Positions 20,514 to 39,835 of a stretch of 64,000 nucleotides of DNA are shown here, one piece after another (within the stretch, counting starts at the first letter, position 1; each line of letters starts with the position of its first letter). The notes beneath the pieces were generated by a model that worked only from the letters and a program-made list of their open reading frames with translations, ran no database searches and was not told the DNA's origin. This DNA comes from Betaproteobacteria bacterium (GTDB taxonomy: Bacteria; Pseudomonadota; Gammaproteobacteria; Burkholderiales; SG8-41), in NCBI GenBank assembly GCA_947476215.1, contig CANJQI010000003.1, positions 5,980-69,979 on the forward strand. Reading direction: 5' to 3'. A program made the translations under genes and the position numbers.

Positions 20514-20566
20514 ATGATTGCAAACTTTCTCAGGTAAAAGTCTCCGGAGATGACTGGAGGTTGACT

Positions 20567-22228: not shown

Positions 22229-22267
22229 CTGGGCAATCCCGCGCATGCACGGGCATGTGCTGTGAAA

Positions 22268-22873: not shown

Positions 22874-23023
22874 TACGTCTCCTTTACGGAAAATCGAAAA
22901 ATGTACTAGGCGCGTAATAGTGCCTGGTAATTGCTGCGTTTTGTTTACGAAGGCTTTACAGGTGCGTGACAATTGCCATGGCGCTGTCATCAAAGTTTCT
23001 TGAAAGTCTGACATGCTTGCCGT

Positions 23024-24277
23024 ATGGAAAAAGCAGTCGCCACGGACTTCGGCAACAGAGCCGGCCCAGCTCATCTCGGCAAAAAAGCGCTGCGCATTGC
23101 CTACGTGACGGAGACCTACCCCCCGGAAGTGAACGGCGTCGCGAACACCGCCGTGCGGTTTGTGGAGGGGTTGCGAGCGCGCGGTCACGCGATACAGCTC
23201 GTTCGTCCGCGACAGGACCGCGGCGACCATGCGCATAACACCACGGGTTATCGCGAAATATTGATGCCCGGAATGCCGATTCCGCGCTACCCCGACCTCA
23301 GGATGGGACTGCCGTCGACGGGAGAACTGCAGCGTCTGTGGAACACGGAGCGGCCGCACCTGGTGCACATCGTCACCGAAGGGCCGCTTGGATGGTCGGC
23401 GCTTCGCGCGGCGCTCAAACTCAAATTGCCTGTGAGTTCTGATTTCCGCACCAACTTTCATGCCTATAGCCGGCACTACGGCATAGGCTGGCTGCAAAAA
23501 CCCATTGCTGCCTACCTGCGCGGTTTTCACAATCGCACCGGATTGACACTGGTGCCAACCGAAGCCATGCGCGCAGATCTGACCCGACGTGGATTTCGCA
23601 ATCTGCGCGTGGTGGCACGCGGTGTAGACACGCAGCTGTTCGATCCGACGCGACGCAGTTTGACGCTGCGCGCGCACTGGGGCGCTGGACCCGACGACCC
23701 GGTCGTGCTGCACGTGGGCCGTCTCGCGCCAGAAAAAAATCTGGAGCCGGTTATCACCGCTTTCGAACAGGCCCGAACGGTTCATTCCCGGGCGAAGCTG
23801 GTTTTCGTCGGCGATGGCCCGGCGCGTGACAGCCTGCGCGCGCGCTGCCCAGATGCTGTTTTCGCGGGCACGCGCATCGGCGTGGATCTCGCTGAACATT
23901 ACGCGTCGGGAGATGTATTTCTGTTTTCCAGCCTGACCGAGACTTTCGGCAACGTCACGGTGGAGGCCTTGGCCAGTGGACTCGCGGTCGTCGCATACGA
24001 CTATGCGGCAGCACGCGAGCATATTGTTCATGGTCACAATGGGATGCTGGCGCGATACGACGACAGCGCCGAGTTTGCGCGTCATGCCATATCGCTGTTG
24101 CAAAACCCCGCGCGCCGCCGCGAGATAGGTCAGCGCGCCCATTTGGGCGCAGAAACGCTCGCATGGACGAACGTTGTCGAGGAGTTTGAAACTATGCTGC
24201 AGGCGGTGGCGGAATCTCCGCCGGCGCCCGCTGGCCTCTCGATAGCCGGGCTTTTTCCTGGCGCCGCACAATCCTGA
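23024..24277 (+). CDS. GT4-family (GT-B) glycosyltransferase
   Basis: LRIAYVTETYPPEVNGVANT N-terminus and C-terminal ...GDVFLFSSLTETFGNVTVEALASGLAVVA (E-X7-E region) are typical of GT4 lipid/sugar glycosyltransferases. Confidence 0.85.
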   Translation: MEKAVATDFGNRAGPAHLGKKALRIAYVTETYPPEVNGVANTAVRFVEGLRARGHAIQLVRPRQDRGDHAHNTTGYREILMPGMPIPRYPDLRMGLPSTGELQRLWNTERPHLVHIVTEGPLGWSALRAALKLKLPVSSDFRTNFHAYSRHYGIGWLQKPIAAYLRGFHNRTGLTLVPTEAMRADLTRRGFRNLRVVARGVDTQLFDPTRRSLTLRAHWGAGPDDPVVLHVGRLAPEKNLEPVITAFEQARTVHSRAKLVFVGDGPARDSLRARCPDAVFAGTRIGVDLAEHYASGDVFLFSSLTETFGNVTVEALASGLAVVAYDYAAAREHIVHGHNGMLARYDDSAEFARHAISLLQNPARRREIGQRAHLGAETLAWTNVVEEFETMLQAVAESPPAPAGLSIAGLFPGAAQS

Positions 24278-24382: not shown

Positions 24383-25588
24383 TTAGTTTTCAGGCAGGAA
24401 TCGCGAATTCGCCTTACCTCGGAATGCCTCGCCGTGAGCGGCTATGACTCGCGAGTAGATATCCGCCAGACGCCGCGCCTGCTGCGTCGCGTCCCATTCC
24501 GCTGCATACTGCATGCCTTCGATGGACAGCCTGCGTCTTTCCGACGGCGAATCGAGCAGATCGCATACTGCGTCCGCATATGTAGATTCCGAAAGCGGCG
24601 CAACGACGGCCCCCTTCCCTGCATCGAGGATGTCTATGGTGCCCATCTCGGCGATTGCGACGACCGGTACGCCGAGCGCCATTGCTTCAAGCAACACCAG
24701 ACCCTGCGTTTCGGTGCGCGAGGCGAACACAAAAACGTCGCCGGCGCGGAAACAATCAAGCAAAGTGGTGGCGCGATCCAGATAACCAACGAACCGCACG
24801 TTTGCGTCGAGTTGCAGGCGGCGCACCAGACTTTGCAGATGCGGCAGCGCCGGGCCTTCACCGGCAATCAGCAATAGCACATCGGGATGGCGGGAGCGAA
24901 CCTGGACCAGCATACGCAGCAGAAAATCGATATTCTTCTCAAACGCGACTCGTCCTACGTGTACCAGCATGGGCCTGTCCGCGGCAATTCCATGGGTGCG
25001 CCGAAACGCCGCACCGTCCCCCCCCGCGAGTTCCTTGAGCCGAATACCGGTGGGCAGTACGGTCATGGGAGAACGCACGCCGTAAGCGGTCAACGCTGCC
25101 AGCATGGCGCGTGACGGCACAACAAGCGCGTTCACCTGATTACCCTGGCGACGCGAAAATTCCCTGGCGAAACATCGCATCAGCGCGCGCGGCGCAAACG
25201 GCACATAGTGATACAGATACTCTTCAAAAAAGGTGTGATACGTGGCCACGCATGGCAACCTGAGTTCACGCGCGAGACGTAGTCCGGCATAGTGCGCCGC
25301 GAATGGCGTCTGGATGTGCACGATATCGAACTTTAGGCCGTTGAGGCGCGCCGGCAGCTCACGCAAGGCGTCACCCCGCATCAAGCGGTCTTCGGGATCA
25401 AGCGGAATGCCACGGGCACGAATGCGCAAGATACCGGCTTCATCGATACCGACCGCCTGCGGGTATTCAGGGGCAGCCACCACCACCTGATGACCGAGAT
25501 CCTGCAATTCACGGCGGAAGGTGCGTATCGAGGTGGATACCCCGTTTACGCGGGGGAAATAGACATCCGACAGGTAGAGGATCCGCAC
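24383..25588 (-). CDS. GT4-family (GT-B) glycosyltransferase
   Basis: GTG start. (M)RILYLSDVYFPRVNGVSTSI... and ...GDVFVFASRTETQGLVLLEAMALGVPVVA. The N-terminus resembles diacylglycerol glycosyltransferases. Confidence 0.85.
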   Translation of the reverse strand: MRILYLSDVYFPRVNGVSTSIRTFRRELQDLGHQVVVAAPEYPQAVGIDEAGILRIRARGIPLDPEDRLMRGDALRELPARLNGLKFDIVHIQTPFAAHYAGLRLARELRLPCVATYHTFFEEYLYHYVPFAPRALMRCFAREFSRRQGNQVNALVVPSRAMLAALTAYGVRSPMTVLPTGIRLKELAGGDGAAFRRTHGIAADRPMLVHVGRVAFEKNIDFLLRMLVQVRSRHPDVLLLIAGEGPALPHLQSLVRRLQLDANVRFVGYLDRATTLLDCFRAGDVFVFASRTETQGLVLLEAMALGVPVVAIAEMGTIDILDAGKGAVVAPLSESTYADAVCDLLDSPSERRRLSIEGMQYAAEWDATQQARRLADIYSRVIAAHGEAFRGKANSRFLPEN

Positions 25589-25711
25589 TGGGCGAGTTTC
25601 GGTTTCGTGACACCCAACCGTAACAGCGCATCGTTACAGTTTTGCGTCGGTACGGTCATTATTGTCACAAAAGTTGGCGAACAGCACCCACCATGGCAGT
25701 ATTGCAAGATC

Positions 25712-26587
25712 ATGACAGCCGACGTTTTTATCTGGTGGTTTTTCCTGTGCGCGGTGAGCGGGCTCAATATTCTGGCCTGGGCGCTCTCCGCCCAGGCGCT
25801 CGAGCGGCGCCAGGCAGCGCTGCCCGAAGCGGTTTACCGCGCACGGCGACTTCAGCTGTTCCTGTCCGCGGGATATGTCTTCGGCTGCGCGTTTCGCTCC
25901 ATCCTGCCGGTCTACGACGTGCCACGCGTATGCCTGTTCGATTCGTGGCTGTGCAGCGTCATGGTCGGGCGCTCGGTGGCCACCTTCGCCGAAGTGTGCT
26001 TTGCCGCGCAGTGGGCGCTGATGATGCGCGAAATCTCCCATGCCTCCGGGAGTTTCTTCGCCAGAATCGCCGCGCTGGCGCTGGTTCCCCTGATTATCAT
26101 TGCGGAGACTTTTTCATGGTATTCGGTGTTGACCACATCGAACCTCGGCCATGTGGTGGAGGAATCCATCTGGGGTGCGAGTGCGGCACTGGTGGTGATA
26201 AGCCTGATTGCGGTGTTGCCACGCTGCGCAGGCATGCTGCGCCGCCTGATCCTGAGCGCGTGCGCCGCCGGCACTGCCTATGTTTGTTACATGTTCCTGA
26301 TCGACGTACCCATGTACTGGTCACGGTGGGTCGCCGATGAGGCGAACCGGCGCGACTATCTGGGCATTACCCAGGGACTCGCCGATGTGTCGCAACGCTG
26401 GATTGTGTCCCACCATTGGCAGGATTGGCAGGATTGGCAGAGCGAGATTGCGTGGATGTCGCTTTATTTCAGCGTGGCAGTGTGGCTCAGCATCGCGCTC
26501 ATCTACGCACCGATACTGGAACGACGCACCGCGAGCAACCGGACATCGGTGATATTCGCCCGCGTCGCCGGGAACATGGTTCGCTGA
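25712..26587 (+). CDS. Polytopic membrane protein of unknown function (about 7-8 TM)
   Basis: Start moved to MTADVFIWWFFLCAVSG (25712), because the upstream part of the track ORF overlaps the GT gene. I recognise no family. Contains an in-frame 9-bp x3 repeat (WQDWQDWQ). Confidence 0.6.
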   Translation: MTADVFIWWFFLCAVSGLNILAWALSAQALERRQAALPEAVYRARRLQLFLSAGYVFGCAFRSILPVYDVPRVCLFDSWLCSVMVGRSVATFAEVCFAAQWALMMREISHASGSFFARIAALALVPLIIIAETFSWYSVLTTSNLGHVVEESIWGASAALVVISLIAVLPRCAGMLRRLILSACAAGTAYVCYMFLIDVPMYWSRWVADEANRRDYLGITQGLADVSQRWIVSHHWQDWQDWQSEIAWMSLYFSVAVWLSIALIYAPILERRTASNRTSVIFARVAGNMVR

Positions 26588-26753: not shown

Positions 26754-27773
26754 TCATTCTGCCCGGATCCCGGCGGCGCGTACCACCTTGTCCCATTTCG
26801 TAATCTCGGCGTCCAGGTGGGTCTGAAATTCGGCTGGCGCGGATCCGTAAACATCCAGCCCCTGGCCCGAGAAGCGTTCCAGAACCTGGGGACTTCGGAT
26901 GATTTTTGCGGTCGTGGTGTGCACACGTTCGACTATCACTTTGGCGGTACCTGCCGGCGCCAGCATTCCGTACCACGTCGCATATTCGAATCCTGCCAGA
27001 CCCGATTCCGCAACCGTGGCAATTTCGGGCGCGATCGCGGACCGTTTCAGACTGCTGATGGCCAGCAGCTTGATCTTTCCGGTCTTTGCATACGGCAGCA
27101 CGCTTGCCATATTGGTCAACAATACATGAACCTCACCGGACAGCAATGCGGTGGTTGCCTGACCTGCGCTCTTATAGGGCACATGCAACAGATCGATCCC
27201 GGCGGTGTACCTGAATAATTCCGCACCCAGATGCGTCGCGCTGCCGATGCCGGCCGAGCCATAGGCGAGTTTGCCGGACTGCGTTTTCGCCAGCGATATC
27301 AGATCCTTGACGGAATTCGCGGCGACGGATGCATGTACCGCCAATATGCTGGGTTGGCTGGCAATCAGCGTCACGCCAACAAAGTCGCGCCTGATATCAA
27401 AATCCAGATTCTTGTAAAGCGCCGGCGTAATCGCGATCGATGAACTGGATATCAACAATGTATAGCCGTCGGCGGCCGCCTTGGCAGCCATGGACGTGCC
27501 AACCGTACTGCCAGCGCCGGGTCGGTTATCCACCACGACCGCCTGCCCCCATTCGTCGGTGAGCGCCAGCGCAACGATGCGCCCGACGATGTCGCTGCCC
27601 CCGCCTGGCGCCAGCGGCACGATGATGCGCACTGGTTTTTCGGGGAATTTCCCTGATTGCCTTGTAACTGGGCGCGTGTTGCCCTGTGCATAAACGTGAG
27701 CGGCGCTAATTACAGCCAGTGCAATAAACAGGCCAGCCACGCACGGGCCTTTCCAGTAACGATTGGGTCGCAT
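26754..27773 (-). CDS. Bug-family (tripartite tricarboxylate transporter) periplasmic substrate-binding protein
   Basis: Start at MRPNRYWKGPCVAGLFIALAVISAAHVYA (signal peptide). Followed by FPEKPVRIIVPLAPGGGSDIVGR..., the family hallmark. Confidence 0.88.
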   Translation of the reverse strand: MRPNRYWKGPCVAGLFIALAVISAAHVYAQGNTRPVTRQSGKFPEKPVRIIVPLAPGGGSDIVGRIVALALTDEWGQAVVVDNRPGAGSTVGTSMAAKAAADGYTLLISSSSIAITPALYKNLDFDIRRDFVGVTLIASQPSILAVHASVAANSVKDLISLAKTQSGKLAYGSAGIGSATHLGAELFRYTAGIDLLHVPYKSAGQATTALLSGEVHVLLTNMASVLPYAKTGKIKLLAISSLKRSAIAPEIATVAESGLAGFEYATWYGMLAPAGTAKVIVERVHTTTAKIIRSPQVLERFSGQGLDVYGSAPAEFQTHLDAEITKWDKVVRAAGIRAE

Positions 27774-27818
27774 GCAACGCTTTCGTCGGTAACAAAAATG
27801 ACATGATGAACGACTGAT

Positions 27819-27835
27819 ATTGAAGTTTTGTGACA
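27819..27835 (-). promoter_or_regulatory. Candidate Pho box upstream of the Bug gene
   Basis: The minus strand reads TGTCACaaaacTTCAAT (half-sites 11 bp apart), then 10 nt, then CATCAT. It lies 46-62 nt upstream of ATG 27773. Confidence 0.4.
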
Positions 27836-27851
27836 ATGCCCGGGAGAGTCA

Positions 27852-28256
27852 TCAGGCGGCCGACTGCAGCACCTCATTAAGCGCGCCGCGCGGTATATCT
27901 CCGCTCATCACATCAAGTATATTGCGTGCCGCCTCAAGTTCTGCTTCCCTGCCCACGCGGTTGGTCAGGACTGTTGTCAGCCAGATGCCGCGTCGCGTGC
28001 ACGCCGTAACGTCGATGTGCTCCGGAATCGGGAACGCGCACGCTATCACCCGCAATTTTCTGCAGTACTGCAGAATCTCATCGTCGATGGACACGGGGGC
28101 TGCCACCAGCCAGGCATGCGCACAGCCGCCAGGCACGACGATTTCGTGTCGCGCATCCTTGTTAAACGACATTGTGGGCAACACGTCGCAGAGGCTGGTC
28201 AATAGATCGATGGCGCCAGGGTCGACGTTTCGTGTGATCAGTGCAATCGGTTTCAT
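27852..28256 (-). pseudogene. D-2-hydroxyacid dehydrogenase remnant lacking the whole NAD-binding domain (in-frame internal deletion)
   Basis: 134 codons from the ATG after AGGAAA. MKPIALITRNVDPGAIDLL...LRVIACAFPIPEHIDVTACTRRGIWLTT is the N-terminal catalytic subdomain. It joins directly to ...REAELEAARNILDVMSGDIPRGALN, the extreme C-terminus. No GxGxxG segment is present. Confidence 0.5.
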
Positions 28257-28387
28257 ATTGTGGTTTTTCCTCATGACTTGATATCGGTTGGCTACGAGCT
28301 TGAGTGCCACTGAAGGCGCACCAACGTAACATGCGATTGTTGCGCCATGATGGCAGACGATCCGTGCCGCGGCATGGCGCGCGGAAA

Positions 28388-28432
28388 CTGTCACCAAAAT
28401 GTCACCGAAATGTCACAAACCCCGCCTAATAT
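28388..28432 (+). promoter_or_regulatory. Pho box (three tandem half-sites) plus -10 element of phoX
   Basis: CTGTCACcaaaaTGTCACcgaaaTGTCAC, with half-sites starting at 28389, 28400 and 28411 (exact 11-bp phase). A 10-nt gap follows, then TAATAT (28427-28432). The phoX ATG is at 28472. Confidence 0.8.
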
Positions 28433-28471: not shown

Positions 28472-30394
28472 ATGAGCAAAGGGTACGGCGATCAAGAAAC
28501 CATAAACAATGCGCCCATTTCAGGAACCTTTTCTGAATTGCTGGAAGTAAGCCTGTCGCGGCGTCAGATTTTAAAGGGCGCATCCTTGCTGCCCCTGCTG
28601 GGTCTGCCGCTCGGCTGTGCCACCACGGCGGGCCCACCCGATTCCGGTGAGCTCGGGTTCAGTGCAATCAGCGCTTCCTCCGAAGATCGGGTACGGGTAG
28701 CGCACGGTTACGACGCCCGCGTACTGTATCGCTGGGGTGACCCGGTGGGCAGCACCGCCGGCATGCCGGTGTTCAAGTCCGATGCAAGCAACACTGCCGC
28801 CGAGCAGGCGCTGCAGGCCGGCATGCATCACGACGGCATCGAGTTTTTTTCGCTGCCCTATGGGTCGGGCAGTTCCGAACGCGGACTGCTGGTGATGAAT
28901 CACGAATATACCGACGACGGACTGCTACATGGCGATGGCTTCGCCAACTGGAGTGCAGAAAAAGTTCTGAAGTCCCAGAATGCGCACGGCGTTAGCGTGA
29001 TCGAAGTCGAACTGCGCAACGGCATATGGTCAGTGGCACGCCCTTCCCGTTACGCTCGCCGCATTACCGCGCGCACCGCGATGCGGGTTTCCGGCCCGGC
29101 GGCGGGACATGCCTCCCTTCAAACTTCTGCCGATCCGTTGGGCCTTGAAGTTCTGGGCACCATCAACAACTGCGCGGGCGGTTACACGCCGTGGGGCACC
29201 TATCTGACGTGCGAGGAAAACTGGAATAACTATTTCGTCAATACTTCGACCATACCCGATGAACAACGCCGCTACGGCGTCAATGCCAAGGGTTCCGGTT
29301 ACCGCTGGAACGAATTCGACGCGCGCTTCGATGCCTTAGCTCATCCCAATGAACCGAACCGGTTTGGCTGGGTCGTCGAAATCGATCCCTTTAATCCGGA
29401 CTCGAAGCCGGTCAAGCGCACCGCACTTGGCCGAATCAAGCACGAGGGCGCGGCACTCGCACTGACTGCCGACAACCGAGTCGTTTATTACATGGGCGAC
29501 GACCAGCAATTTGAATACATCTACAAATTCGTGTCGCGCGATGCCTATAACAAGGCCGATCGCGCCGCCAACCGGGATCTGCTCGACCACGGCACGCTTT
29601 ATGTTGCGAAGTTCGGCGCTGATGGCAGCGGGGAATGGATTGATCTCTCGCACGGCAAAAACAACCTTACCGCAATCAACGGATTCGCAAGCCAGGCTGA
29701 CGTATTGATCAAGACCCGGCAGGCGGGAGATGTCGTCGGCGCGACAAAAATGGACAGGCCGGAATGGACGGCCGTACACCCGAAGGATAAATCGGTCTAT
29801 TGCACGCTGACCAACAACAGCGCACGCGGCGCCAAGGACCAGCCGCGCGTGGATGCCGCCAATCCACGCGTCAACAACACGTTCGGCCACATCATACGCT
29901 GGAATGAAGACAGATCGGATCCGGCCGCCACGACATTCCGCTGGGATATATTTGTCATGGCGGGAGACCCGTTGCTCGCCGATGCCAACAAACACGGCAA
30001 CATCAAGGGTGACGTATTCGGCAGTCCGGATGGTTTGTGGTTCGACACCGCCGGCCGCCTGTGGATACAGACCGATGTTTCGACCAGCACGCTGGGCCGC
30101 AACGACTATGCCGGGATCGGCAACAATCAGATGGTATGCGCCGATATCGCAACCGGCCGCATCAAGCGCTTTCTGACAGGACCCAAAGGATGCGAAATCA
30201 CCGGCATCGCGGAAACCCCCGACGGGCGAACCATGTTCATCAATATCCAGCACCCCGGTGAAACCTCGTCCGAGCGCAACGACCCCGCGAATCCACAGGC
30301 TGTCAGCACCTGGCCGGATGGCCCCGAAGGAGGACGGCCGCGCGCGGCCACCATTGCCATACGGAAAACCGACCGCGGCGTGATTGGTACCTGA
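28472..30394 (+). CDS. phoX: PhoX-family (DUF839) Tat-exported alkaline phosphatase
   Basis: 640-aa ORF with Tat signal SRRQILKGASLLPLLG, beta-propeller PhoX-like body (MNHEYTD..., NCAGGYTPWGTYLTCEEN, ...RMDRPEW..., DGLWFD). SD AGGAG. Confidence 0.85.
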   Translation: MSKGYGDQETINNAPISGTFSELLEVSLSRRQILKGASLLPLLGLPLGCATTAGPPDSGELGFSAISASSEDRVRVAHGYDARVLYRWGDPVGSTAGMPVFKSDASNTAAEQALQAGMHHDGIEFFSLPYGSGSSERGLLVMNHEYTDDGLLHGDGFANWSAEKVLKSQNAHGVSVIEVELRNGIWSVARPSRYARRITARTAMRVSGPAAGHASLQTSADPLGLEVLGTINNCAGGYTPWGTYLTCEENWNNYFVNTSTIPDEQRRYGVNAKGSGYRWNEFDARFDALAHPNEPNRFGWVVEIDPFNPDSKPVKRTALGRIKHEGAALALTADNRVVYYMGDDQQFEYIYKFVSRDAYNKADRAANRDLLDHGTLYVAKFGADGSGEWIDLSHGKNNLTAINGFASQADVLIKTRQAGDVVGATKMDRPEWTAVHPKDKSVYCTLTNNSARGAKDQPRVDAANPRVNNTFGHIIRWNEDRSDPAATTFRWDIFVMAGDPLLADANKHGNIKGDVFGSPDGLWFDTAGRLWIQTDVSTSTLGRNDYAGIGNNQMVCADIATGRIKRFLTGPKGCEITGIAETPDGRTMFINIQHPGETSSERNDPANPQAVSTWPDGPEGGRPRAATIAIRKTDRGVIGT

Positions 30395-30424
30395 GCGACG
30401 GCGCGCTGCTTCTTTGAACCTCCC

Positions 30425-30577
30425 AACGCAGGGGACGCAAAGGACGCAGGGGTTCGCAGAGGAAAGCTTGTATCCCCAGTTTTGGGTGGTGTGCCGTCGG
30501 GCACTTGCATCCAGAGCTTAACTCGATCCAGATTTTTTTCCCCGCGCTCCTGCGCGTCCTTTGCGTCCTCCGCGTTG
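30425..30577. repeat. MITE-like element, family 3, copy 1 (~40-bp terminal inverted repeats)
   Basis: The left arm is AACGCAGGGGACGCAAAGGACGCAGGGGTTCGCAGAGGAAA. The reverse complement of the right arm is AACGCGGAGGACGCAAAGGACGCGCAGGAGCGCGGGGAAA. Confidence 0.65.
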
Positions 30578-30628
30578 CGAGTTTGAATTCAGTTCCCGAT
30601 GTCGGCAATGATTTACCGACTCTCTCCC

Positions 30629-31477
30629 CTATGACGTCTCGACGGCCAGGTTATCGATGTGCACTACGGAAGTTGGAGCAGACGTCCAGCGCACGAGCTG
30701 CATGTCGCCGTCCATGTGTTCGACGATGGCAGTGCAGCTATCCACCCAGTCACCACAGTTGATATAGGTGATGCCGTCTATCTGCTTGATCACCGGCGTG
30801 TGTATGTGACCGCATATCACCCCGTCCAGACCGCGGCGCTTCACATTGCGGACAACGGCGTTCTCGAAATCGCTGATAAAGCTGACCGCGCGCAGCACAT
30901 TACGCTTGGCATAGTCCGCGAGCGACCAGTGGCCGCTGACGCCGAGTTTGCGGCGGATCAGCGACAGTATCCGGTTCAGATGAACGAGCACGGTGTAGGA
31001 CACGTCGCCCAGAATGGAAACCCATCGATGGCAGGTCGTGACCTGATCGTACTCGTCGCCGTGCAGCAGAATGTAGCGCTTGCCGTCGGCAGCGATGTGA
31101 ATATGTTCGCGCACCACATTGATGTCGCCGAATGAGCTGTCGACGTACTCACGCAGTGCCTCATCATGGTTACCGGGTATCAGAAACACGTTCACGTGGT
31201 GGCGCGCCTTCTTGAGAATCTTCTGCACCACGGTGTTGTGCGAGGCAGGCCAGTAGACGCTGCGGCTCATTGCCCAGAAGTCGACAATGTCCCCTATCAG
31301 AAAAATATACTCGGGATCGTATTCCTTGATGAAGGACAGCAGCTGCTCGGCGCGGCAGGCACGCGATCCAAGGTGTATGTCGGAAAGGAACAGCGATCGC
31401 ACCCTGCGTACAGGAAGATCGGGGGCAATTGCAGTCTGGTCGTCCATGACTGACTGTATCGCTGACATGTCGTTCAT
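30629..31477 (-). CDS. LpxH-superfamily metallophosphoesterase, PlcP-like (candidate phosphate-starvation phospholipase C)
   Basis: 282-aa ORF with metallophosphoesterase motifs LSDIHLG, GDIVDFW, PGNHDE, LHGDEYD, GHIH. It deviates from the true LpxH context (GDLFxxWxGDD, GNRD). It has its own Pho box and sits next to dgkA and phoX. Confidence 0.65.
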   Translation of the reverse strand: MNDMSAIQSVMDDQTAIAPDLPVRRVRSLFLSDIHLGSRACRAEQLLSFIKEYDPEYIFLIGDIVDFWAMSRSVYWPASHNTVVQKILKKARHHVNVFLIPGNHDEALREYVDSSFGDINVVREHIHIAADGKRYILLHGDEYDQVTTCHRWVSILGDVSYTVLVHLNRILSLIRRKLGVSGHWSLADYAKRNVLRAVSFISDFENAVVRNVKRRGLDGVICGHIHTPVIKQIDGITYINCGDWVDSCTAIVEHMDGDMQLVRWTSAPTSVVHIDNLAVETS

Positions 31478-31598
31478 GCCGGCCGTCGATTCACGTCCGC
31501 CATATCCCTATTCATGGCCGCGATCAGCCTCTCCCAAAATTCTCTCCTACCCTTCAACATGCAATCCATTGTGCGCATGATGATGGACAATCGAGACG

Positions 31599-31631
31599 AT
31601 TTGATTAAGGTCGCATGACGGTTTTGTGACT
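31599..31631 (-). promoter_or_regulatory. Pho box and -10 upstream of the plcP-like gene
   Basis: The minus strand reads AGTCACaaaacCGTCAT (11-bp phase), then 10 nt, then TCAAAT. Confidence 0.55.
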
Positions 31632-31651
31632 GCAGAATGTTCGCAGAATAC

Positions 31652-32020
31652 TCAGCCGAACAGCACAATCAGCCACACCACGGGCACATTTATCAGGGAC
31701 AGCAGCACGGCCGCACTACCGAGATCCTTGGCGCGCTTTGCGAGCGCGTGGTCTTCGAGCGAAACTCGATCGGTGACGGCCTCGATACCGGAATTGAGCA
31801 CTTCAACAATCAAGACCAGAAGCACGCAGGACACCATCATTGCCCTGCCTGTGCCGTTAACCGGCATGAAAAAAGCAAGCGGAACCAGGATCAGTGCCAG
31901 CAGCACTTCCTGGCGAAATGCGTCTTCGAACCGGTAGGCCGCCGCAAGCCCGTCGAACGAATAGAACAAAGCATTGCATATGCGCCTGAGTCCGGTCTTG
32001 CCTTTATAAGGACTTTCCAT
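31652..32020 (-). CDS. dgkA: Diacylglycerol kinase (prokaryotic DgkA family)
   Basis: Start moved to MESPYKGKTGLRRI (32020). The 122-aa, 3-TM protein carries ...AFRQEVLLALILVP..., VEVLNSGIEAVTDRVS and AKDLGSAAVLL, the DgkA signatures. Confidence 0.88.
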   Translation of the reverse strand: MESPYKGKTGLRRICNALFYSFDGLAAAYRFEDAFRQEVLLALILVPLAFFMPVNGTGRAMMVSCVLLVLIVEVLNSGIEAVTDRVSLEDHALAKRAKDLGSAAVLLSLINVPVVWLIVLFG

Positions 32021-32042
32021 CCGGCCACCCCTGAAAAGGTTG

Positions 32043-32076
32043 CAGCTTAGGTAACCAAGATGACAACCGCGTGACA
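32043..32076 (-). promoter_or_regulatory. Pho box and -10 upstream of dgkA
   Basis: The minus strand reads CTGTCACgcggtTGTCAT (11-bp phase), then 10 nt, then TAAGCT. The box ends ~40 nt before ATG 32020. Confidence 0.7.
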
Positions 32077-32214
32077 GCAGCGCCGTAAGCCCAGATGGGT
32101 GCGCTATCCAGGGTCCGTTTACATCGCGAAATGGATGAATAAATAAGAACTTAGTCATCAAAATGTAATCTTTTAATGCGATAAGCATTAGACCGGTTGA
32201 AAACTTGGTGAAAT

Positions 32215-32421
32215 ATGGCCCGACACACTGAACCGGACGTGCTGTTTTCCCGCCTGCTGATAGCCGGCGTCAGCGACATGCTCAAGGAGTGGCGCAAGTT
32301 TAATGCTGGCAAGGCAGACGTGATCATCGAGCACGATGCTCTTGATACAAGTGGCCGCATGCCCAAGTATCACACCTCGCCTGATACCGACCGCAAAGGC
32401 GCGGAAAAGAAGTCGATGTAA
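32215..32421 (+). CDS. Possible small protein (68 aa), no recognisable family
   Basis: The ORF has G/C-rich third codon positions consistent with local coding bias, and GGTGA lies 4 nt before the ATG. There is no similarity I can recognise, and it may be non-coding. Confidence 0.3.
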   Translation: MARHTEPDVLFSRLLIAGVSDMLKEWRKFNAGKADVIIEHDALDTSGRMPKYHTSPDTDRKGAEKKSM

Positions 32422-32493
32422 CAGCCACCTTACGATTACAGCTCGGCGAGCCAGCCAGAGTGTAACCAAATCGTAACATTGTCGCTCTAGAAT
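32417..32493 (+). promoter_or_regulatory. Two in-phase Pho-box-like elements and -10 upstream of the STAS gene
   Basis: TGTAACagccaCCTTAC lies at 32417-32433 and TGTAACcaaatCGTAAC at 32461-32477. All half-sites fall on an 11-bp register (44 bp apart). A 10-nt gap follows, then TAGAAT (32488-32493). Confidence 0.6.
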
Positions 32494-32529
32494 CCGGTGT
32501 TACATGGCGGCAATAAAGGATACCGGCAC

Positions 32530-32868
32530 ATGAACATCGAATCCGAATCTTTGGACGGCGGCATACTCAAGATCACGCTTTCCGGCCGCATGGATATACA
32601 GGGTACACAGGAAATCGACCTGAAATTCAGCAGCCACACGGCCCGGCAGCGATCGGTCATTGTTGACATGAGCGCGGTGGATTTTCTTGCGTCCATGGGA
32701 ATACGCTCACTGCTGATGGTTGCCAAGGCAATTTCAGGGCGCAATGGAAAGATGGTGCTGTTGGGTCCTGACGCCGGCGTGACAAAAGTCCTCGAAATGT
32801 CGGGCGTCGACACGCTGGTGCCGATTTTCAGGTCCCTTGATGAGGCGTGCAAGGCCGTTCGCGTGTGA
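32530..32868 (+). CDS. STAS-domain protein (anti-sigma-factor antagonist / SpoIIAA-like)
   Basis: 112 aa from the ATG after AAGGA. LKITLSGRMDIQGTQEI...VIVDMSAVDFLASMGIRSLL...GKMVLLGPDAGVTKVLEMSGVDTLVPIF is the STAS fold pattern, with the conserved Ser in DFLASMG. Confidence 0.85.
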   Translation: MNIESESLDGGILKITLSGRMDIQGTQEIDLKFSSHTARQRSVIVDMSAVDFLASMGIRSLLMVAKAISGRNGKMVLLGPDAGVTKVLEMSGVDTLVPIFRSLDEACKAVRV

Positions 32869-32988
32869 CCTAACGAACACGTCACATCCGCATCCGTCAA
32901 GGCACCGAAAACGTCAACGCCTGACACCATGCGACCTGCACGTCCATATGCCAAGCTTCTTCCCGAAAAACACTTACCCAGAGAGCGG

Positions 32989-33021
32989 TGAAACAATATT
33001 GCAATATTAGTCAGGTAGGAT
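32989..33021 (+). promoter_or_regulatory. Candidate Pho box / 14-bp palindrome and -10 upstream of pstS
   Basis: TGAAACaatatTGCAAT (11-bp phase), then 10 nt, then TAGGAT (33016-33021). It overlaps the perfect palindrome AATATTGCAATATT (32995-33008). Confidence 0.45.
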
Positions 33022-33070
33022 GCGTTCGGTCCGTCAGAATCTAATTTACTCAATGAATGGAGTGCTATTT

Positions 33071-34117
33071 ATGAATTCCCAATTTATGCAAAGACTTATC
33101 TCAGGCGCGGCGCTGGCATTAAGCCTGTCGGCCGCACCCGTTGCGTTGTCGGCCGACATCACCGGCGCCGGCGCGACTTTCCCCTACCCTCTATATGCAA
33201 AATGGGCTGAAGCCTACAAGGCAAAGGCGGGAATCGGCATTAACTATCAGTCGATCGGATCGGGGGGCGGCATCAAGCAGATTATTGCGAAAACGGTAGA
33301 TTTCGGGGCTTCGGACGCGCCGCTGGAAGCTGCGCAGCTTGAAAAAGAAGGATTGGTCCAGTTCCCCATGGTCATCGGCGGCGTGGTTCCAGTCTATAAG
33401 CTGGAGGGGATCAAGCCCGGCGAAATACGCCTGACCGGCACGGTGCTGGCCGACATCTATTTAGGCAAGATCACCAAGTGGAATGCACCTGCAATCGCCG
33501 CGCTCAACAAAGGCGTCAATCTGCCTGACCAGGACATCACGGTTGTTTCGCGTTCAGATGGATCCGGCACCACGTTTATCTTTACTAGCTACCTTTCAAA
33601 AGTCAGCGCCGAATGGAAGGACAAGGCCGGCAACAACACGTCGGTAAAATGGCCGGCTGGGGTCTCCGGCAAGGGCAACGAAGGCGTCGCGGCTTACGTT
33701 CAGCGGTTGTCAGGCTCCATCGGGTACGTCGAGTATGCGTATGCCATTCAGAACAAGATGTCGTATGTATTACTGCAGAACAAAGACGGTGCATTTGTGG
33801 GGCCGGATGACAAGACATTCAGAGCCGCGGCAGCGAATGCACAATGGGACAAAGCACCCGGCTTTTATCAAATCCTGACCGACCAGGTTGGCAAGGAAAG
33901 CTGGCCGATCACCGGCGCAACCTTTATCCTGATGCACAAGAAGCAAGACAAGCCGGCCAATGCGCAGAACGCGCTCAAATTCTTTGACTGGGCCTACGAA
34001 AGCGGCGACCAGATGGCGCTCGACCTGGACTATATTCCGATGCCAGACAGCGTAGTAAAGCTCGTTAAGGCCGAATGGAAGAAAATTCAGGACGAGTCCG
34101 GAAAGCCGGTGTTCTAG
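33071..34117 (+). CDS. pstS: Phosphate ABC transporter substrate-binding protein PstS
   Basis: Start at the ATG 8 nt after GGAG. Signal peptide, then ADITGAGATFPYPLYAKWAEAYK...GSGGGIKQI...SDGSGTTF. Confidence 0.93.
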   Translation: MNSQFMQRLISGAALALSLSAAPVALSADITGAGATFPYPLYAKWAEAYKAKAGIGINYQSIGSGGGIKQIIAKTVDFGASDAPLEAAQLEKEGLVQFPMVIGGVVPVYKLEGIKPGEIRLTGTVLADIYLGKITKWNAPAIAALNKGVNLPDQDITVVSRSDGSGTTFIFTSYLSKVSAEWKDKAGNNTSVKWPAGVSGKGNEGVAAYVQRLSGSIGYVEYAYAIQNKMSYVLLQNKDGAFVGPDDKTFRAAAANAQWDKAPGFYQILTDQVGKESWPITGATFILMHKKQDKPANAQNALKFFDWAYESGDQMALDLDYIPMPDSVVKLVKAEWKKIQDESGKPVF

Positions 34118-34144
34118 CGTATTGCTTTTCCAGACTCAACGCTC

Positions 34145-34172
34145 TCGCGAGGGGCCTTTTCGGGCTCCTCGC
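34145..34172 (+). terminator. GC-rich hairpin between pstS and pstC (likely partial terminator/attenuator)
   Basis: cgcgaggggcc-tttt-cgggctcctcgcg lies 28 nt after the pstS stop. Only a weak T tract follows. Confidence 0.4.
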
Positions 34173-34189
34173 GCCTTTCAGGGGATGCC

Positions 34190-35209
34190 ATGTCTACAAC
34201 TGAAGCAGCGCTGAACGCACCGCAAATGCTGAAGGTTGCGCAACAATCAACTTATAATCAGGAACCGAAGCCGACAACGAGGCGAGCCTGGATGGACACG
34301 CTATTCAAAAACCTGACGCGTTTTTTCGCATTCTTCGTATTAGCGATACTGGTCGCCATTTTACTGTCGCTGGTTTATCACAGCCAGCTTACACTGAGTA
34401 AATTTGGTTTCGGTTTCCTGTTTGTAGATGAATGGGACCCCGTTAAAGAGGAGTTCGGCGCATTGGTTCCGATTTACGGAACGCTCGTCAGCTCCGCCAT
34501 CGCCATGATCATCGGCATACCGGTGAGCTTCGGTATTGCCCTGTTTCTGACAGAATTGTCGCCGAACTGGCTTAAGCGCCCGCTCGGCACGGCAATCGAA
34601 ATGCTGGCGGCGATTCCGAGCATCATCTACGGCATGTGGGGACTGTTTGTTTTTGCCCCGCTATTTGCGGACTACGTCCAGCCCGCACTGATCAAGACCT
34701 TTGGCGCGTTGCCTATATTCGGGATGTTGTTCAAGGGCCCCGCGATGGGCATAGGTATGTTGACCGCAGGCATCATACTGGCGATCATGGTCATACCCTT
34801 TATCACGGCCATCATGCGCGACGTGTTCGAACTGGTGCCCCCCATGCTCAAGGAGTCCGCATACGGCCTCGGCGCCACAACCTGGGAAGTGGCGTGGAAA
34901 ATCGTGCTGCCGTACACCAAGATCGGCGTGGTGGGGGGCATCATGCTGGGGTTGGGACGCGCGCTCGGCGAAACCATGGCTGTAACCTTTGTCATCGGTA
35001 ATGCGCATCGCCTGAGCACCTCGTTGCTCGCGCCCGGCAACAGCATTGCATCGTCTCTGTCCAACGAGTTTACGGAAGCGGTTGGCGACCTTCATTCATC
35101 GGCGTTGATCGAACTGGGCCTGATCCTGTTCCTGATCACCACCATCGTGCTTGCGCTGTCGAAACTGCTGCTGCAGCAACTAGCAAAACAGGAAGGCCGG
35201 AAAACGTAG
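34190..35209 (+). CDS. pstC: Phosphate ABC transporter permease PstC
   Basis: 339-aa polytopic ORF with the EAA-type loop ([14 protein letters not shown]). Confidence 0.9.
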
Positions 35210-35268
35210 CGTACAAAGCCAGATGAAGCACGAGTGCTTCATCTGGTGCCGCACACATAGGATCATTC

Positions 35269-36108
35269 ATGGTAAATGCAATTTACATACGCAGGCGCAG
35301 ACTGAACAAGCTCATGCTGCTGATTTCCGGCGCGACCATTGTGTTCGGCCTGTTCTGGCTGACGTGGATACTGGCCACACTTCTATATCAGGGATTCGTC
35401 GCTCTGCGCCCGTCGCTGTTTACCCAGATGACCCCCCCGCCGGGCAGCGACGGCGGACTGCTTAACGCCATTGCCGGCAGCTTCATGATGGCCGCCACCG
35501 GCACGATCATCGGCACTCCTGTCGGCATACTGGCCGGCACCTATCTGGCCGAATTCGGCCGTCGCGGCTGGCTGGCGCCGGCAACCCGTTTTATCAACGA
35601 CATTCTGCTCTCCGCGCCGTCCATTGTTATCGGCCTGTTGGTGTACTCGGTCTATGTGTCGCAGGTCAAGCATTTTTCCGGTTGGGGCGGGGCGCTGGCA
35701 TTGGCGCTGATTGTGATTCCGGTGGTGGTGAGAACCACCGACGACATGCTCAAGCTGGTGCCCGACAGTCTGCGTGAAGCGGCGTTTGCTCTCGGCGCGC
35801 CATACTGGAAAATGATAGTGTTCGTGTCCTATCCCGCGGCCAAGGCCGGCATGATTACCGGCATACTGCTTGCGGTGGCGCGCATCAGCGGCGAAACCGC
35901 ACCGCTGCTCTTCACGTCTCTTAACAATCAATTTTGGTCCACCGACATGAACGCGCCGATGGCCAATCTTCCCGTCGTCATTTTCCAGTTCGCGATGAGC
36001 CCCTACGAAGACTGGCAACGATTGGCGTGGGGCGGCGCGATATTGATTACGTTCGGTGTGCTGGCGCTGAATATCGCAGCGCGTCTGGTCAGCCGCGGCA
36101 AGAACTAG
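35269..36108 (+). CDS. pstA: Phosphate ABC transporter permease PstA
   Basis: 279-aa polytopic ORF ([15 protein letters not shown]). Confidence 0.9.
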
Positions 36109-36131
36109 GAAGCAAAACAGGAATATCCGAT

Positions 36132-36920
36132 ATGAACGAAGAATTGAACGAAGAATTGCATATGGCGTCGCCGAAACTCAAGATCAACAGCCTGAATTTT
36201 TACTATGGCGGATTTCAAGCGATCAAGAATGTGTCCATGGATATTCCGGCAGGTCAGGTAACCGCATTCATCGGTCCATCGGGTTGCGGAAAATCGACTT
36301 TATTGCGTACCTTCAACCGCCTGTACGAGCTATATCCTGGGCAGCGCGCCGAGGGCGAGATACTGCTCGATGGAAACGATATCCTTGATGAAAAACAGGA
36401 TCTTACGCTACTGCGCGCCAAGGTCGGCATGGTCTTTCAGAAGCCGACGCCGTTCCCGATGTCGATCTACGACAACATTGCTTTCGGCGTGCGCCTTTAC
36501 GAAAACCTCAACCGTCATGACATGGACGATCGTGTTGAATGGGCGCTGACCAAGGCCGCGCTCTGGAAAGAGGCCAGGGACAAGCTCAATCAAAACGGCA
36601 ACAGCCTGTCCGGCGGCCAGCAACAGCGCTTGTGCATTGCGCGCGGCATCGCGATCAAACCGGAAGTATTACTGCTCGACGAGCCCTGTTCCGCGCTCGA
36701 TCCGATTTCAACTGCCCGAATTGAAGAGCTGATCCATGAATTGAAGGCCGACTATACGGTTGTAATCGTCACGCATAACATGCAGCAGGCGGCCCGCGTT
36801 TCGGATTTCACCGCCTATATGTACCTGGGAGAGATGATCGAATTTGGCGCGACCGACAAGATTTTCACGACGCCAAAACAGAAAGCAACCGAAGACTACA
36901 TCACCGGCAAGTTCGGCTGA
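36132..36920 (+). CDS. pstB: Phosphate ABC transporter ATP-binding protein PstB
   Basis: Walker [10 protein letters not shown], signature LSGGQQQRL, Walker B LLLDEP. The N-terminus holds a 12-bp tandem duplication (NEELNEEL). An alternative start is at 36162. Confidence 0.92.
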
Positions 36921-36948
36921 TCCGATAACCGCTGGCAGGAGAAGAACT

Positions 36949-37671
36949 ATGCAGAATGATCACACCTCGTCGCAGTTTGACACCGAAATGGAAACCCTGC
37001 GCAGCAGCGTGCTGAACATGGGCGGACTGGTCGAGCGCCAGTTGCAGCGCGCCCTGGACGCGGTCAAGGGCGGGGACTCCGCACCGGCAAATCTGGTAAT
37101 GACAGATGAGCAACTGGTAAACGAAATGCAGATGAATATCGACAAATTGTGCGCTGAAGTGATCGCGCGCCGGCAGCCTGCCGCAGGCGATCTGCGCACG
37201 GTTATTGCGGTCGGTCAAACGGTCAATGATCTTGAGCGCATGGGCGACGAAGCAAAGAAAATTGCGCGCAAGGCGACGGAGATCTATGGTGAAGGCGCCA
37301 GTACACGTGATCGCAGGAACTCACTGGTGCATTATTCCGAGATCGGCCACATCGGGCAGCTTGCACAATCCATGCTGCAGATGGCCCTCGACGCATATGC
37401 GCGCAAGGATCTGGTCGTGGCCGCCGAAGTCGTCACGCGGGACAAGCAAGTCGACAGCGAATTCCAGGCCGTCATGCGCCAGCTTATCAGCTACATGATG
37501 GAGGACCCGCGCACCATTTCCTCCGTGCTTGACGTTATTTTTGTCGCCAAGTCATTGGAGCGCATCGGAGACCACGCAAAAAATATCGCCGAATACGTGG
37601 TGCAGGTTGTCAAAGGCAAGGACATGCGGCACGCCACCGCCGAGGAAATTCAGCGCGAAGCCGCGAGCTGA
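36949..37671 (+). CDS. phoU: Phosphate signalling complex protein PhoU
   Basis: Start at the ATG after AGGAGAAG. Two PhoU repeats are present (DLERMGDEA, SLERIGDHAKNIAE). Confidence 0.92.
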   Translation: MQNDHTSSQFDTEMETLRSSVLNMGGLVERQLQRALDAVKGGDSAPANLVMTDEQLVNEMQMNIDKLCAEVIARRQPAAGDLRTVIAVGQTVNDLERMGDEAKKIARKATEIYGEGASTRDRRNSLVHYSEIGHIGQLAQSMLQMALDAYARKDLVVAAEVVTRDKQVDSEFQAVMRQLISYMMEDPRTISSVLDVIFVAKSLERIGDHAKNIAEYVVQVVKGKDMRHATAEEIQREAAS

Positions 37672-39023
37672 AGCTGATGTTCAGGTGGTGGAACAACAGC
37701 CACCATACGCGTCGCCGGAAATTTCAGGGTAAAGCGGCTTCCGCGTCCAGGCTCGCTGTCGATATTGAGTGTCGCGTCATGACGCAATAACACGTGCCTG
37801 ACAATGGCCAGCCCCAGCCCGGTGCCGCCCGTCGCGCGCGATCGACTGCGATCAACACGATAAAAGCGTTCGGTCAGCCTCGGAATGTGTTCTGCGGGTA
37901 TTCCGATCCCACTGTCCTCAACGCTGAACAGGCCTGCGCCATCGGTCATCTGCCAGCGTATTCCGACCTTGCCGCCCTGCGCGGTGTAGCGAATGGCGTT
38001 GCTGATCAAATTGCCGAATGCACTGCGCAACTCGATCTCCGAACCGAGTATTGCCCCCGGAGCCTGCACTTCAAGCTGAATATCGTGCCTCCCGCCGCTC
38101 AGCGACTGCGCATCACGAAGCAGTGCATTCATGAGCGGCGCGATCGCCACCGGCTCCCCGGCCACGCTGTTACTTTCATTCTCGAGCGCCGAGAGCACAA
38201 GCAGGTCTTCCACCAGACGCTGCATGTTATGCGCCTGCTCGGCCATTAGAGAGAGATAGCGCTCCAATTGCTGCGGCGCCGGACCGGTGGTCTGTATTGT
38301 TTCTATGAATCCGGATATCACCGTCAATGGCGTCTTGATTTCATGGGAAACATTGGCCACGAAATCGCGGCGCACGGTGGCCACACGCTCGAACTCCGTG
38401 ACATCTTGCCCGATAAGCAATTTCTCCTGATCGCCGTAAGGGATCAACTGCACGGATATCAGCAGTCCGCCGCCGCGATCCGACTTGAGCAGCAGTGCTT
38501 GTCCCGATCGGTCCGCGGCCAGATACGCGGCAAATTCGGGCTGGCGAATCAGGTTAAAAACCAGAGCCCCCTTGTCGCGCTCCCCGTCGAGCCCGAAATA
38601 CGTTTGCCCTGCTGCGTTACACCATTCGATATGATGTCCGGCGTCCAGCATTACGACGGCATCCGGCATCGCCTCCCCTGCATTTCGAAAGCGCTGCAAC
38701 GCTTCGGCAAGCGAGCGCCGCTCGCGGGACAGTTCCCGCGAAAACCGATGCAGTGCCGCAAAAACGGTTTCCCACACACCGCGGCCCGACGGAATCGGTG
38801 TTTCGACCGGCGACTGCACCCAGCGCTTCAAGGCCCGCAAATTCTGCACATGGAGCGCAACCATGCCCGCAAGACCGCAGGCAGCGATGCCGAGCCCCCA
38901 CACCGCCCCCGCCACAGCGCCTGCCACGAGCGCCGCCAAACCCAGCATTGCGCACGCGGTCAGTGTTCGTCTGAGTATCGAATCCACTCGATTATTTTGC
39001 ACTAATCCGATAGCCGCTGCCAC
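37650..39023 (-). CDS. phoR: Phosphate regulon sensor histidine kinase PhoR
   Basis: Two N-terminal TM helices, PAS, H-box SHEIKTPLTV, HATPase DSGIGIP...GGTGLGLAI. The start is uncertain (ATG 39023 overlaps phoB; GTG 38987 is an alternative). The 3' end overlaps the convergent phoU by 22 nt. Confidence 0.9.
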   Translation of the reverse strand: MAAAIGLVQNNRVDSILRRTLTACAMLGLAALVAGAVAGAVWGLGIAACGLAGMVALHVQNLRALKRWVQSPVETPIPSGRGVWETVFAALHRFSRELSRERRSLAEALQRFRNAGEAMPDAVVMLDAGHHIEWCNAAGQTYFGLDGERDKGALVFNLIRQPEFAAYLAADRSGQALLLKSDRGGGLLISVQLIPYGDQEKLLIGQDVTEFERVATVRRDFVANVSHEIKTPLTVISGFIETIQTTGPAPQQLERYLSLMAEQAHNMQRLVEDLLVLSALENESNSVAGEPVAIAPLMNALLRDAQSLSGGRHDIQLEVQAPGAILGSEIELRSAFGNLISNAIRYTAQGGKVGIRWQMTDGAGLFSVEDSGIGIPAEHIPRLTERFYRVDRSRSRATGGTGLGLAIVRHVLLRHDATLNIDSEPGRGSRFTLKFPATRMVAVVPPPEHQLQLAASR

Positions 39024-39678
39024 GCACAGTCTCTATCAGCCGATCATAACCGGACGCTTCGAGCGCGGCGCGCAAACGGCGCACATGAACGTCCACGGTG
39101 CGCTCCTCCACGAACACATGATCACCCCACACGTGGTCGAGCAATTGCGTGCGGCTGTAAACGCGCTCGGGGTGCGTCATCAGAAAATGCAGCATTCGAA
39201 ACTCGGTGGGCCCCAGTGCGACTTCCGTTCCGTCACAGGTAACACGGTGCGAACCCGGATCCAGTCTGAGTCCGCCTATTTCAACCGCCTCATCGGTTGC
39301 ATCAGGCGCGCTGCGCCGCAAGACCGCATTGATGCGGGCCAGCAATTCGCGCGGCGAAAACGGCTTGGTCATGTAGTCGTCCGCGCCCGCGTCGAGGCCG
39401 ACGACTTTGTCCTGCTCCTGAGATTTCGCGGTCAGTACGATGATGGGAACCGAGCGCGTGCGCTGCTCGCGGCGCAGACTGCGCGCAAACTCTATTCCCG
39501 ACTTTCCCGGCAGCATCCAGTCGAGCAATACCAGGTCAGGAAGTTCCTCGCGTAGCAATGTCTGGGCTGCTTCGGCGTCCAGCGCCTGCAAGATGCGATG
39601 TCCCGCATGCTTAAGGTTTGCCGCAATCAGTTCCTGTATGGCAGGTTCATCTTCGACAACTAAAATGCATGCGGACAT
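38992..39678 (-). CDS. phoB: Phosphate regulon response regulator PhoB (OmpR family)
   Basis: ILVVEDEPAIQELI...LLDWMLPG..., winged-helix C-terminus ...VDVHVRRLR...IETVRGSGYR. Confidence 0.93.
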   Translation of the reverse strand: MSACILVVEDEPAIQELIAANLKHAGHRILQALDAEAAQTLLREELPDLVLLDWMLPGKSGIEFARSLRREQRTRSVPIIVLTAKSQEQDKVVGLDAGADDYMTKPFSPRELLARINAVLRRSAPDATDEAVEIGGLRLDPGSHRVTCDGTEVALGPTEFRMLHFLMTHPERVYSRTQLLDHVWGDHVFVEERTVDVHVRRLRAALEASGYDRLIETVRGSGYRISAK

Positions 39679-39726: not shown

Positions 39727-39759
39727 AGTGTATTGCATATTTGTTACAGACTTGTGACG
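39727..39759 (-). promoter_or_regulatory. Pho box and -10 upstream of phoB (autoregulation)
   Basis: The minus strand reads CGTCACaagtcTGTAACaaataTGCAAT, three half-sites in 11-bp phase. TACACT lies 10 nt after TGTAAC. Confidence 0.65.
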
Positions 39760-39835
39760 CCGATCAACGCAGTCCCGGGCAACCTTGGTCGCGATGAAAA
39801 TTTAGTGCCCCATCACATGAAGCGCCCACGATTCA

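Follow-up and report, generated by a model that had tools for sequence, protein, structure and literature searches.

We analysed a 64,000-nucleotide stretch of the genome of a Betaproteobacteria bacterium (GenBank assembly GCA_947476215.1, contig CANJQI010000003.1, positions 5,980 to 69,979), hereafter called the window. The genome, which belongs to the order Burkholderiales, was assembled from a freshwater or lake metagenome. Two adjoining genes of its minus strand code for an integral-membrane diacylglycerol kinase, DgkA, and for a metallophosphoesterase that appears to be of the PlcP type. A preliminary description of this sequence had located both open reading frames (ORFs) and their adjacency correctly, and had taken the pair for a two-gene module. 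Our analyses do not bear out the latter view: the adjacency of dgkA and plcP is what is left of a three-gene arrangement, dgkA-agt-plcP, after deletion of the glycosyltransferase gene agt, and not a designed two-gene module. We estimate at about 0.8 the probability that the locus derives from a Pho-regulated lipid-remodelling operon by loss of agt. Both remaining ORFs are intact. The dgkA gene (31652-32023) codes for 123 residues and the downstream plcP gene (30629-31477) for 282 residues, or for 272 residues if translation starts at the alternative position 31447, as called in other assemblies. They are separated by a 174-bp spacer (31478-31651), where relatives carry an agt gene of approximately 1.2 kb.

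Analyses of related genomes revealed the order dgkA-agt-plcP on one strand, with agt coding for a glycosyltransferase of family 4 (GT4), in ten genome loci of the same genus or family; all informative close relatives have this organization. Metagenome contigs whose PlcP is 84-89% identical to that of the window still carry agt. The three genes are thus co-oriented and adjacent in the relatives, with agt and plcP overlapping by ATGA in two loci (L039 and L162), in contrast with the dgkA, spacer and plcP of the window. In two relatives, L037 (genome G341) and L034 (G357), the DgkA, GT4 and PstS matches are each split into two adjacent pieces, which likely reflects frameshift errors in metagenome-assembled genomes rather than real pseudogenes.

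The spacer retains the region that precedes agt in these relatives. The 87 nt nearest to dgkA can be aligned with the dgkA-agt intergenic regions, with z values of 14.7 for L035, the closest one, and 6.8 for L037. Reading from dgkA towards plcP, the elements that have been kept are four Pho half-sites (31632-31593), a gap of 10 nt, a CATCAT hexamer (31582-31577), 7 nt and the start of agt, ATGGA (31569). The similarity to relatives ends right after ATGGA, and the body of agt is missing. A search of the whole genome identified no operon-type agt elsewhere; the best match to the operon Agt of L039, with 58% identity, was the product of the GT4a gene located a few kilobases away in the window. 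A same-genus genome with the operon agt encodes orthologues of both GT4a and the neighbouring GT4b as well (L078 and L039). Thus, GT4a is a paralogue rather than a relocated agt.

A mini-ORF of 31 codons (31474-31569, minus strand) starts at the retained agt ATG and ends with a TGA that overlaps the ATG of plcP, again as ATGA. This mini-ORF may be translated and could preserve the translational coupling of plcP. By eye its peptide looked like the C terminus of Agt, a candidate identity that we rejected, as Smith-Waterman comparisons with nine Agt proteins gave z values of 0.5 at most. A NANNAT hexamer is found 7-8 nt before the agt ATG in 11 of 11 sequences (31570-31582 in the window; dgkA-agt spacers of L034-L046), with no Shine-Dalgarno sequence in between. 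This conserved distance suggests that the agt mRNA is leaderless in the genus.

The deletion is not an assembly artefact. Logan contigs from four lake or freshwater metagenome studies cover the junction at ≥99% without joints or loose ends (X5 record 14, 31417-32164; X7 record 19, 31076-31659; X12 record 7, 31227-31627; X11 record 4, 31512-32370). Furthermore, a JGI contig (L166) matches a region of 2276 nt that comprises the spacer with 98.9% identity, and another JGI contig of 27 kb has the same agt-less gene order. With the same junction in four independent studies and two other assemblies, we conclude that the loss of agt is real. Lake samples taken between 2017 and 2023 repeatedly contained the agt-less form. 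A second strain has exactly the same PlcP and DgkA proteins as the window (100% identity) despite three nucleotide differences in plcP and one in dgkA, all four of which are synonymous. This is consistent with both genes being maintained, with differences too few for a formal test.

Pho boxes were searched for using the consensus CTGTCAYNNNNYTGTCAY. A site with no mismatches, CTGTCACGCGGTTGTCAT (CTGTCAC GCGG TTGTCAT), is present on the minus strand at 32060-32077, 36 nt upstream of the dgkA start codon, and a Pho-box-like site with two mismatches, CAGTCACAAAACCGTCAT, precedes plcP on the same strand (31615-31632). Up to two mismatches, the window contains 11 matches, compared with 1.92 +/- 1.45 in shuffled sequences, none out of 100 of which reached 11. 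Six of the 11 occupy promoter positions in the Pho island that extends from 22.9 to 32.1 kb, before GT4a, GT4b, phoX (two sites), plcP and dgkA. Allowing three mismatches was unspecific (35 matches for 20.7 expected), and only matches with at most two mismatches, together with conservation, were used.

Both sites keep their positions in same-genus and same-family relatives. Upstream of dgkA, a match is found in eight of ten relatives, 60-67 nt before the DgkA match in seven of these. A -10-like hexamer, TAAGCT (32044-32049, minus strand), follows the dgkA Pho box at a distance of 10 nt, and a TAnnnT-like element is aligned with it in the relatives; this hexamer may function as the -10 of a dgkA promoter. 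Alignment with relatives showed that the site before plcP lies in a series of four half-sites, CAGTCAC, CCGTCAT, CCTTAAT and TCGTCTC (31593-31632, minus strand), phased by 11 bp and conserved column by column with the dgkA-agt intergenic regions of ten relatives. The CATCAT hexamer on the same strand, separated by 10 nt from the fourth half-site and by 7 nt from the agt ATG that has been kept, resembles a -10 element and may act as one; a NANNAT hexamer is present at the same aligned position in the window and in all ten relatives. Another candidate for the -10 on the plcP side, TCAAAT, was discarded as it is not conserved in these relatives. Phased half-site matches were detected in the dgkA-agt spacers of eight of ten relatives and Pho boxes at the agt-plcP junction in none of ten. 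The proposal that each gene has a Pho box of its own therefore holds for the presence of a Pho-box-like site before both genes; nevertheless, the site attributed to plcP is the orphaned promoter of agt. Scanning of positions 30400-32500 detected neither a terminator-like hairpin nor a sigma-70 -35/-10 promoter; this agrees with PhoB-dependent promoters and leaves transcription free to continue from dgkA into plcP.

The 282-residue protein matches the Pfam family Metallophos (PF00149, 53.6 bits) with a complete set of metal ligands. These residues (D33/H35, D63, N103-H104-D105, H139 and H224/H226) do not vary among 38 family members and align with the ligands of LpxH. As had been proposed from the sequence, it is a member of the LpxH superfamily that is not the LpxH of the organism: its scores are below both LpxH equivalog cut-offs (54.9 versus 134 bits for NF003743 and 50.5 versus 190.35 for TIGR01854), and a canonical lpxH, with an open frame of 254 residues and a score of 312.9 bits, is present on another contig (G000:C1:61804-62514). 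The two proteins share 23-26% identity (E 2.5e-4). The phosphoesterase has the motif GNHDE where the LpxH of the same genome has GNRDF, and a C-terminal NxGDWVxS block, invariant in its family, is missing from LpxH.

The AlphaFold2 model of the phosphoesterase has a mean pLDDT of 76.8, with values above 90 in the core. Its top 25 matches in the PDB are all LpxH structures, including complexes with lipid X (E ~1e-9, TM 0.45-0.65), which suggests an architecture with an LpxH-like core and a helical lipid cap. LpxH (PDB 5B49, 5K8K and 8QJZ) is thus the best structural match: it shares the calcineurin-like fold and all seven metal ligands, and its helical insertion occupies an equivalent position. 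It differs from the window protein by its sequence (18-26% identity), by the lack of the extra conserved blocks and by its genomic context. In a tree of 143 family sequences, LpxH is an outgroup set apart from the family by a very long branch.

Homologues of the phosphoesterase were found in 143 of 301 genomes of the order, where they form two bands of identity, 55-100% and 43-51%. The window protein is 45-51% identical (E ~1e-81) to the enzymes of plcP-agt(-dgkA) clusters of Burkholderia, Paraburkholderia, Cupriavidus, Polynucleobacter and others, and 48% identical to the PlcP orthologue of the Burkholderia cepacia complex. The reference used for the latter comparison is an orthologue 95-98% identical to the proteins of Burkholderia latens, Burkholderia dolosa and other cepacia-complex loci, and not the K56-2 protein itself. 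PlcPs of the cepacia complex are reported to be >84% identical to the genetically characterized PlcP of strain K56-2 (bioRxiv 10.1101/2023.05.30.542800; PMC13691135). Characterized PlcPs are 46-51% identical to one another (46-47% between PA3219 and the MED193 and Sinorhizobium meliloti enzymes, and 51% between those of OB3b and HTCC7211), and the 48% identity between the window and Burkholderia proteins is in the same range.

In the tree, the window protein belongs to a supported clade with its relatives of the same genus or family and a group of GT4-flanked homologues. The homologue has a GT4 gene as its direct neighbour in 10 of the 29 order-level loci, for which only 1.5-kb flanks were available, in 12 of 20 same-genus or same-family loci and in roughly three out of four of the 80 named loci around Burkholderia-type PlcP. 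The agt neighbour that typifies plcP genes is thus found in the relatives; in the window it has been deleted, and GT4a and GT4b are located 5-8 kb away in the same Pho island. Altogether, identity, synteny with GT4 genes and phylogeny support the assignment of the 282-residue protein as a PlcP-type enzyme, in agreement with the resemblance pointed out in the preliminary description. By analogy with characterized members, it would hydrolyse membrane phospholipids such as PC, PE and PG to diacylglycerol in a Mn-dependent manner.

DgkA matches the Pfam family DAGK_prokar (PF01219) with 111.3 bits for a cut-off of 22.3, and its residues 9-122 align to the structure of Escherichia coli DgkA (3ZE3, E 3e-28), a full-length match. 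The LNSxIEAVxDR and AKDLGSAAV blocks are conserved. Its proteobacterial origin, its similarity to the E. coli enzyme and its operon context point to diacylglycerol rather than undecaprenol as the probable substrate. Two other DgkA-family genes are present in the genome (G000:C15:4045-4347 and G000:C177:9327-9611, with 106 and 72.5 bits for PF01219), making the gene studied here the Pho-island paralogue.

DgkA-type kinases are also associated with plcP outside the genus. In the 80 named loci, such a kinase is encoded in 28, nearly always directly after agt, giving the order plcP-agt-dgkA. These kinases, from organisms that include Burkholderia, Paraburkholderia, Trinickia, Caballeronia, Cupriavidus, Dechloromonas and Polynucleobacter, are 47-55% identical to the window DgkA. 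The order plcP-GT4-dgkA was also found in four of six sampled genomes of one family whose phosphoesterases are in the lower identity band (L059-L062), one of these enzymes being the one 95-98% identical to the B. latens and B. dolosa proteins.

In Burkholderia cenocepacia, the proteins of the plcP-agt-dagK operon (BCAL2364-BCAL2366) rise under phosphate depletion (bioRxiv 10.1101/2023.05.30.542800; J Biol Chem 2026, PMC13691135), plcP and agt are required to make MGDG, GADG and KGADG, and the kinase has been proposed to recycle excess diacylglycerol (bioRxiv 10.1101/2023.05.30.542800; PMC13691135). Our analyses show that the kinase of this type of operon is DgkA-type, the window DgkA being ~50% identical to it. 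The genus of the window has the same three protein families, and the predicted phosphate-starvation setting and the kinase-recycling model are shared. The differences are the gene order, plcP-agt-dgkA in B. cenocepacia versus dgkA-agt-plcP in the genus of the window, the second Pho box that precedes agt in this genus and the deletion of agt in the window genome. A Pho-boxed, LpxH-distant phospholipase C with GT4 partners is also described for S. meliloti (SMc00171), SAR11 HTCC7211, Phaeobacter MED193, Pseudomonas aeruginosa (PA3219) and Methylosinus OB3b. P. aeruginosa further resembles the window by having two GT4 enzymes, one of which is unlinked (PA3219 with PA3218 and PA0842). In contrast with the window, the published descriptions of these five clusters mention no diacylglycerol kinase. 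The pairing of dgkA with plcP under Pho control had been presented as a departure from described systems. This does not hold: the phosphate-regulated pairing of PlcP with DgkA is already published, with the same diacylglycerol-recycling model, and widespread, and the locus is no new kind of system.

After the loss of agt, the likely remaining users of diacylglycerol are the products of the GT4a (23024-24277, plus strand) and GT4b (24383-25588, minus strand) genes, both of which match Pfam GT4. Pho-box-like repeats are present before GT4a (22973-23001), and a Pho-box-like site is found at 25701-25718 before GT4b. In other Burkholderiales families (L015, L020, L029 and L033), orthologues of GT4a immediately follow, and orthologues of GT4b immediately precede, plcP. 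As the nearest paralogue of the lost agt, GT4a is a candidate diacylglycerol glycosyltransferase. The earlier suggestion that the GT4 enzymes at 23-25.6 kb use the released diacylglycerol is therefore credible, and the routing of diacylglycerol to them would follow the characterized systems. In those four loci, whose phosphoesterases are in the upper identity band, the three genes form a third layout on one strand, GT4b-plcP-GT4a.

Based on these analyses, the remnant operon might work as follows. Under low phosphate, phosphorylated PhoB, the product of the phoBR genes located at 37.6-39.7 kb, would bind to the dgkA Pho box and also to the four phased half-sites that formerly preceded agt and now lie directly upstream of plcP. 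With no terminator between the genes, plcP would probably be read from both promoters. PlcP, a predicted Mn-type metallophosphoesterase with an LpxH-like core and a putative helical lipid-binding insertion, would strip the phosphorylated head group off membrane phospholipids, yielding diacylglycerol. The latter would be used by the Pho-boxed GT4 glycosyltransferases encoded 5-8 kb away, and any surplus would be converted by DgkA to phosphatidic acid, preventing accumulation of diacylglycerol in the membrane. PhoB binding, the activity of the promoters, the enzyme substrates and the delivery of diacylglycerol to GT4a and GT4b are all proposed here by analogy with characterized systems.

Other readings of the locus were weighed. 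A role of the phosphoesterase in lipid A synthesis, as a second LpxH acting on UDP-2,3-diacylglucosamine, would agree with the names of its homologues in databases, since public pipelines label relatives LpxH, and with LpxH structures being the nearest solved ones. It is hardly credible in view of the scores far under both equivalog cut-offs, the canonical lpxH on another contig, the GNHD motif in place of GNRD, the C-terminal NxGDWV-S block foreign to LpxH, and a genetic context in which agt, dgkA and Pho genes, and not those for lipid A, are consistently found. We consider it very improbable that the two genes are a decaying relic, purposeless since the loss of agt and on their way to becoming pseudogenes. 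A core gene of a conserved three-gene operon has indeed been deleted, and the genome has two other DgkA-family genes. Against such decay, both ORFs are intact with all catalytic motifs, the two proteins are unchanged in the second strain with only synonymous differences in their genes, the promoter elements have been retained, and the agt-less form is recurrent in lake samples over several years.

A closed cycle of head-group salvage would account for the absence of agt from between the two genes and from the rest of the genome, for the Pho boxes kept by both remaining genes and for the presence of PhoX next door. In such a cycle, PlcP would free phosphorylated head groups, and DgkA would return essentially all of the diacylglycerol to phosphatidic acid, with no glycolipid made from the operon. 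We regard it as unlikely, because re-making phosphatidic acid saves no membrane phosphorus, and because GT4a, which is close to the lost Agt type, and GT4b have been kept with Pho-box-like sites and have orthologues as direct neighbours of plcP in other families. Going beyond a remnant operon whose diacylglycerol reaches unlinked GT4 enzymes, one might speculate that the loss of agt has re-wired the pathway. In that case, diacylglycerol released by PlcP would be fed only to the Pho-regulated head-group cluster at 19.6-25.6 kb (GT4a/GT4b, PSD-like, aminotransferase and DUF962 genes), the lineage would make a different phosphorus-free lipid than its relatives, and the leaderless agt start and the mini-ORF would keep plcP translationally coupled. 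We put this forward as a tentative and rather doubtful extension.

Several points weigh against the interpretation of the locus as a remnant lipid-remodelling operon, with the roles proposed above. The plcP-proximal 87 nt of the spacer match neither agt nor the agt-plcP junction significantly (best z 3.6, with one relative). Thus, the end-points of the deletion are only half defined, the 3' one being undefined. The Pho box upstream of plcP has two mismatches and its role after the deletion is putative; more generally, the predicted Pho regulation of plcP and dgkA is derived from sequence sites, and among the sequencing runs listed as containing the stretch, none was of RNA. The link of the phosphoesterase to SMc00171, PA3219, HTCC7211 and K56-2 runs via orthologous loci and published identities rather than direct alignment, and its predicted lipid-binding helical insertion (residues ~141-214) is modelled with pLDDT values of 47-60. 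Finally, the loss of agt might be a step in the dismantling of the pathway and not in its re-routing.

The interest of the locus lies in the natural, population-wide deletion of agt inside an operon. This stable natural knock-out in a freshwater population lends itself directly to testing the function of DgkA and PlcP when their dedicated glycosyltransferase is missing, and a possible takeover by unlinked GT4 enzymes. Our analyses also correct a common mis-annotation, the relatives of this phosphoesterase being labelled LpxH in public databases, and they indicate that the PlcP-Agt-DgkA trio of pathogenic Burkholderia occurs widely among Betaproteobacteria, with its genes in either of two orders.

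The dgkA and plcP genes are surrounded by a dense Pho island. Its members include, in addition to the GT4 genes, those for a TctC-family binding protein (26754-27836), phoX (28472-30394), which is next to plcP, pstSCAB-phoU (33020-37671) and phoR-phoB (37650-39678). A short ORF similar to 2-hydroxyacid dehydrogenases adjoins phoX (27852-28397). It is found as a 134-residue gene in related contigs (L164:1780-2184 and L165:3313-3717), showing that the truncated dehydrogenase-like ORF is conserved and not a one-off.

Further away lies a PSD-like gene (19623-20513), which is found again close to plcP or GT4 genes in L051, L064, L078 and L160. Two ORFs of ~578 residues overlap on opposite strands at 20489-22246; only the plus-strand ORF has a family match, Aminotran_3 (E 3.5e-31), which covers its C-terminal part. 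Back-to-back Pho-box-like repeats are present on both strands at 22955-23001, between GT4a on the plus strand and a small Mpo1/DUF962-like ORF on the minus strand (~22268-22900), in what looks like a divergent Pho-regulated promoter region. Directly upstream of pstS (32860-33090), no Pho-box match was found with up to three mismatches, and several irregularly spaced GTCA repeats are present; the STAS gene that precedes pstS (32497-32868) may carry the promoter. Lastly, a Pho-box-like site, GCGTCAC AAGT CTGTAAC, is located upstream of phoB (39741-39760), consistent with autoregulation of phoBR.

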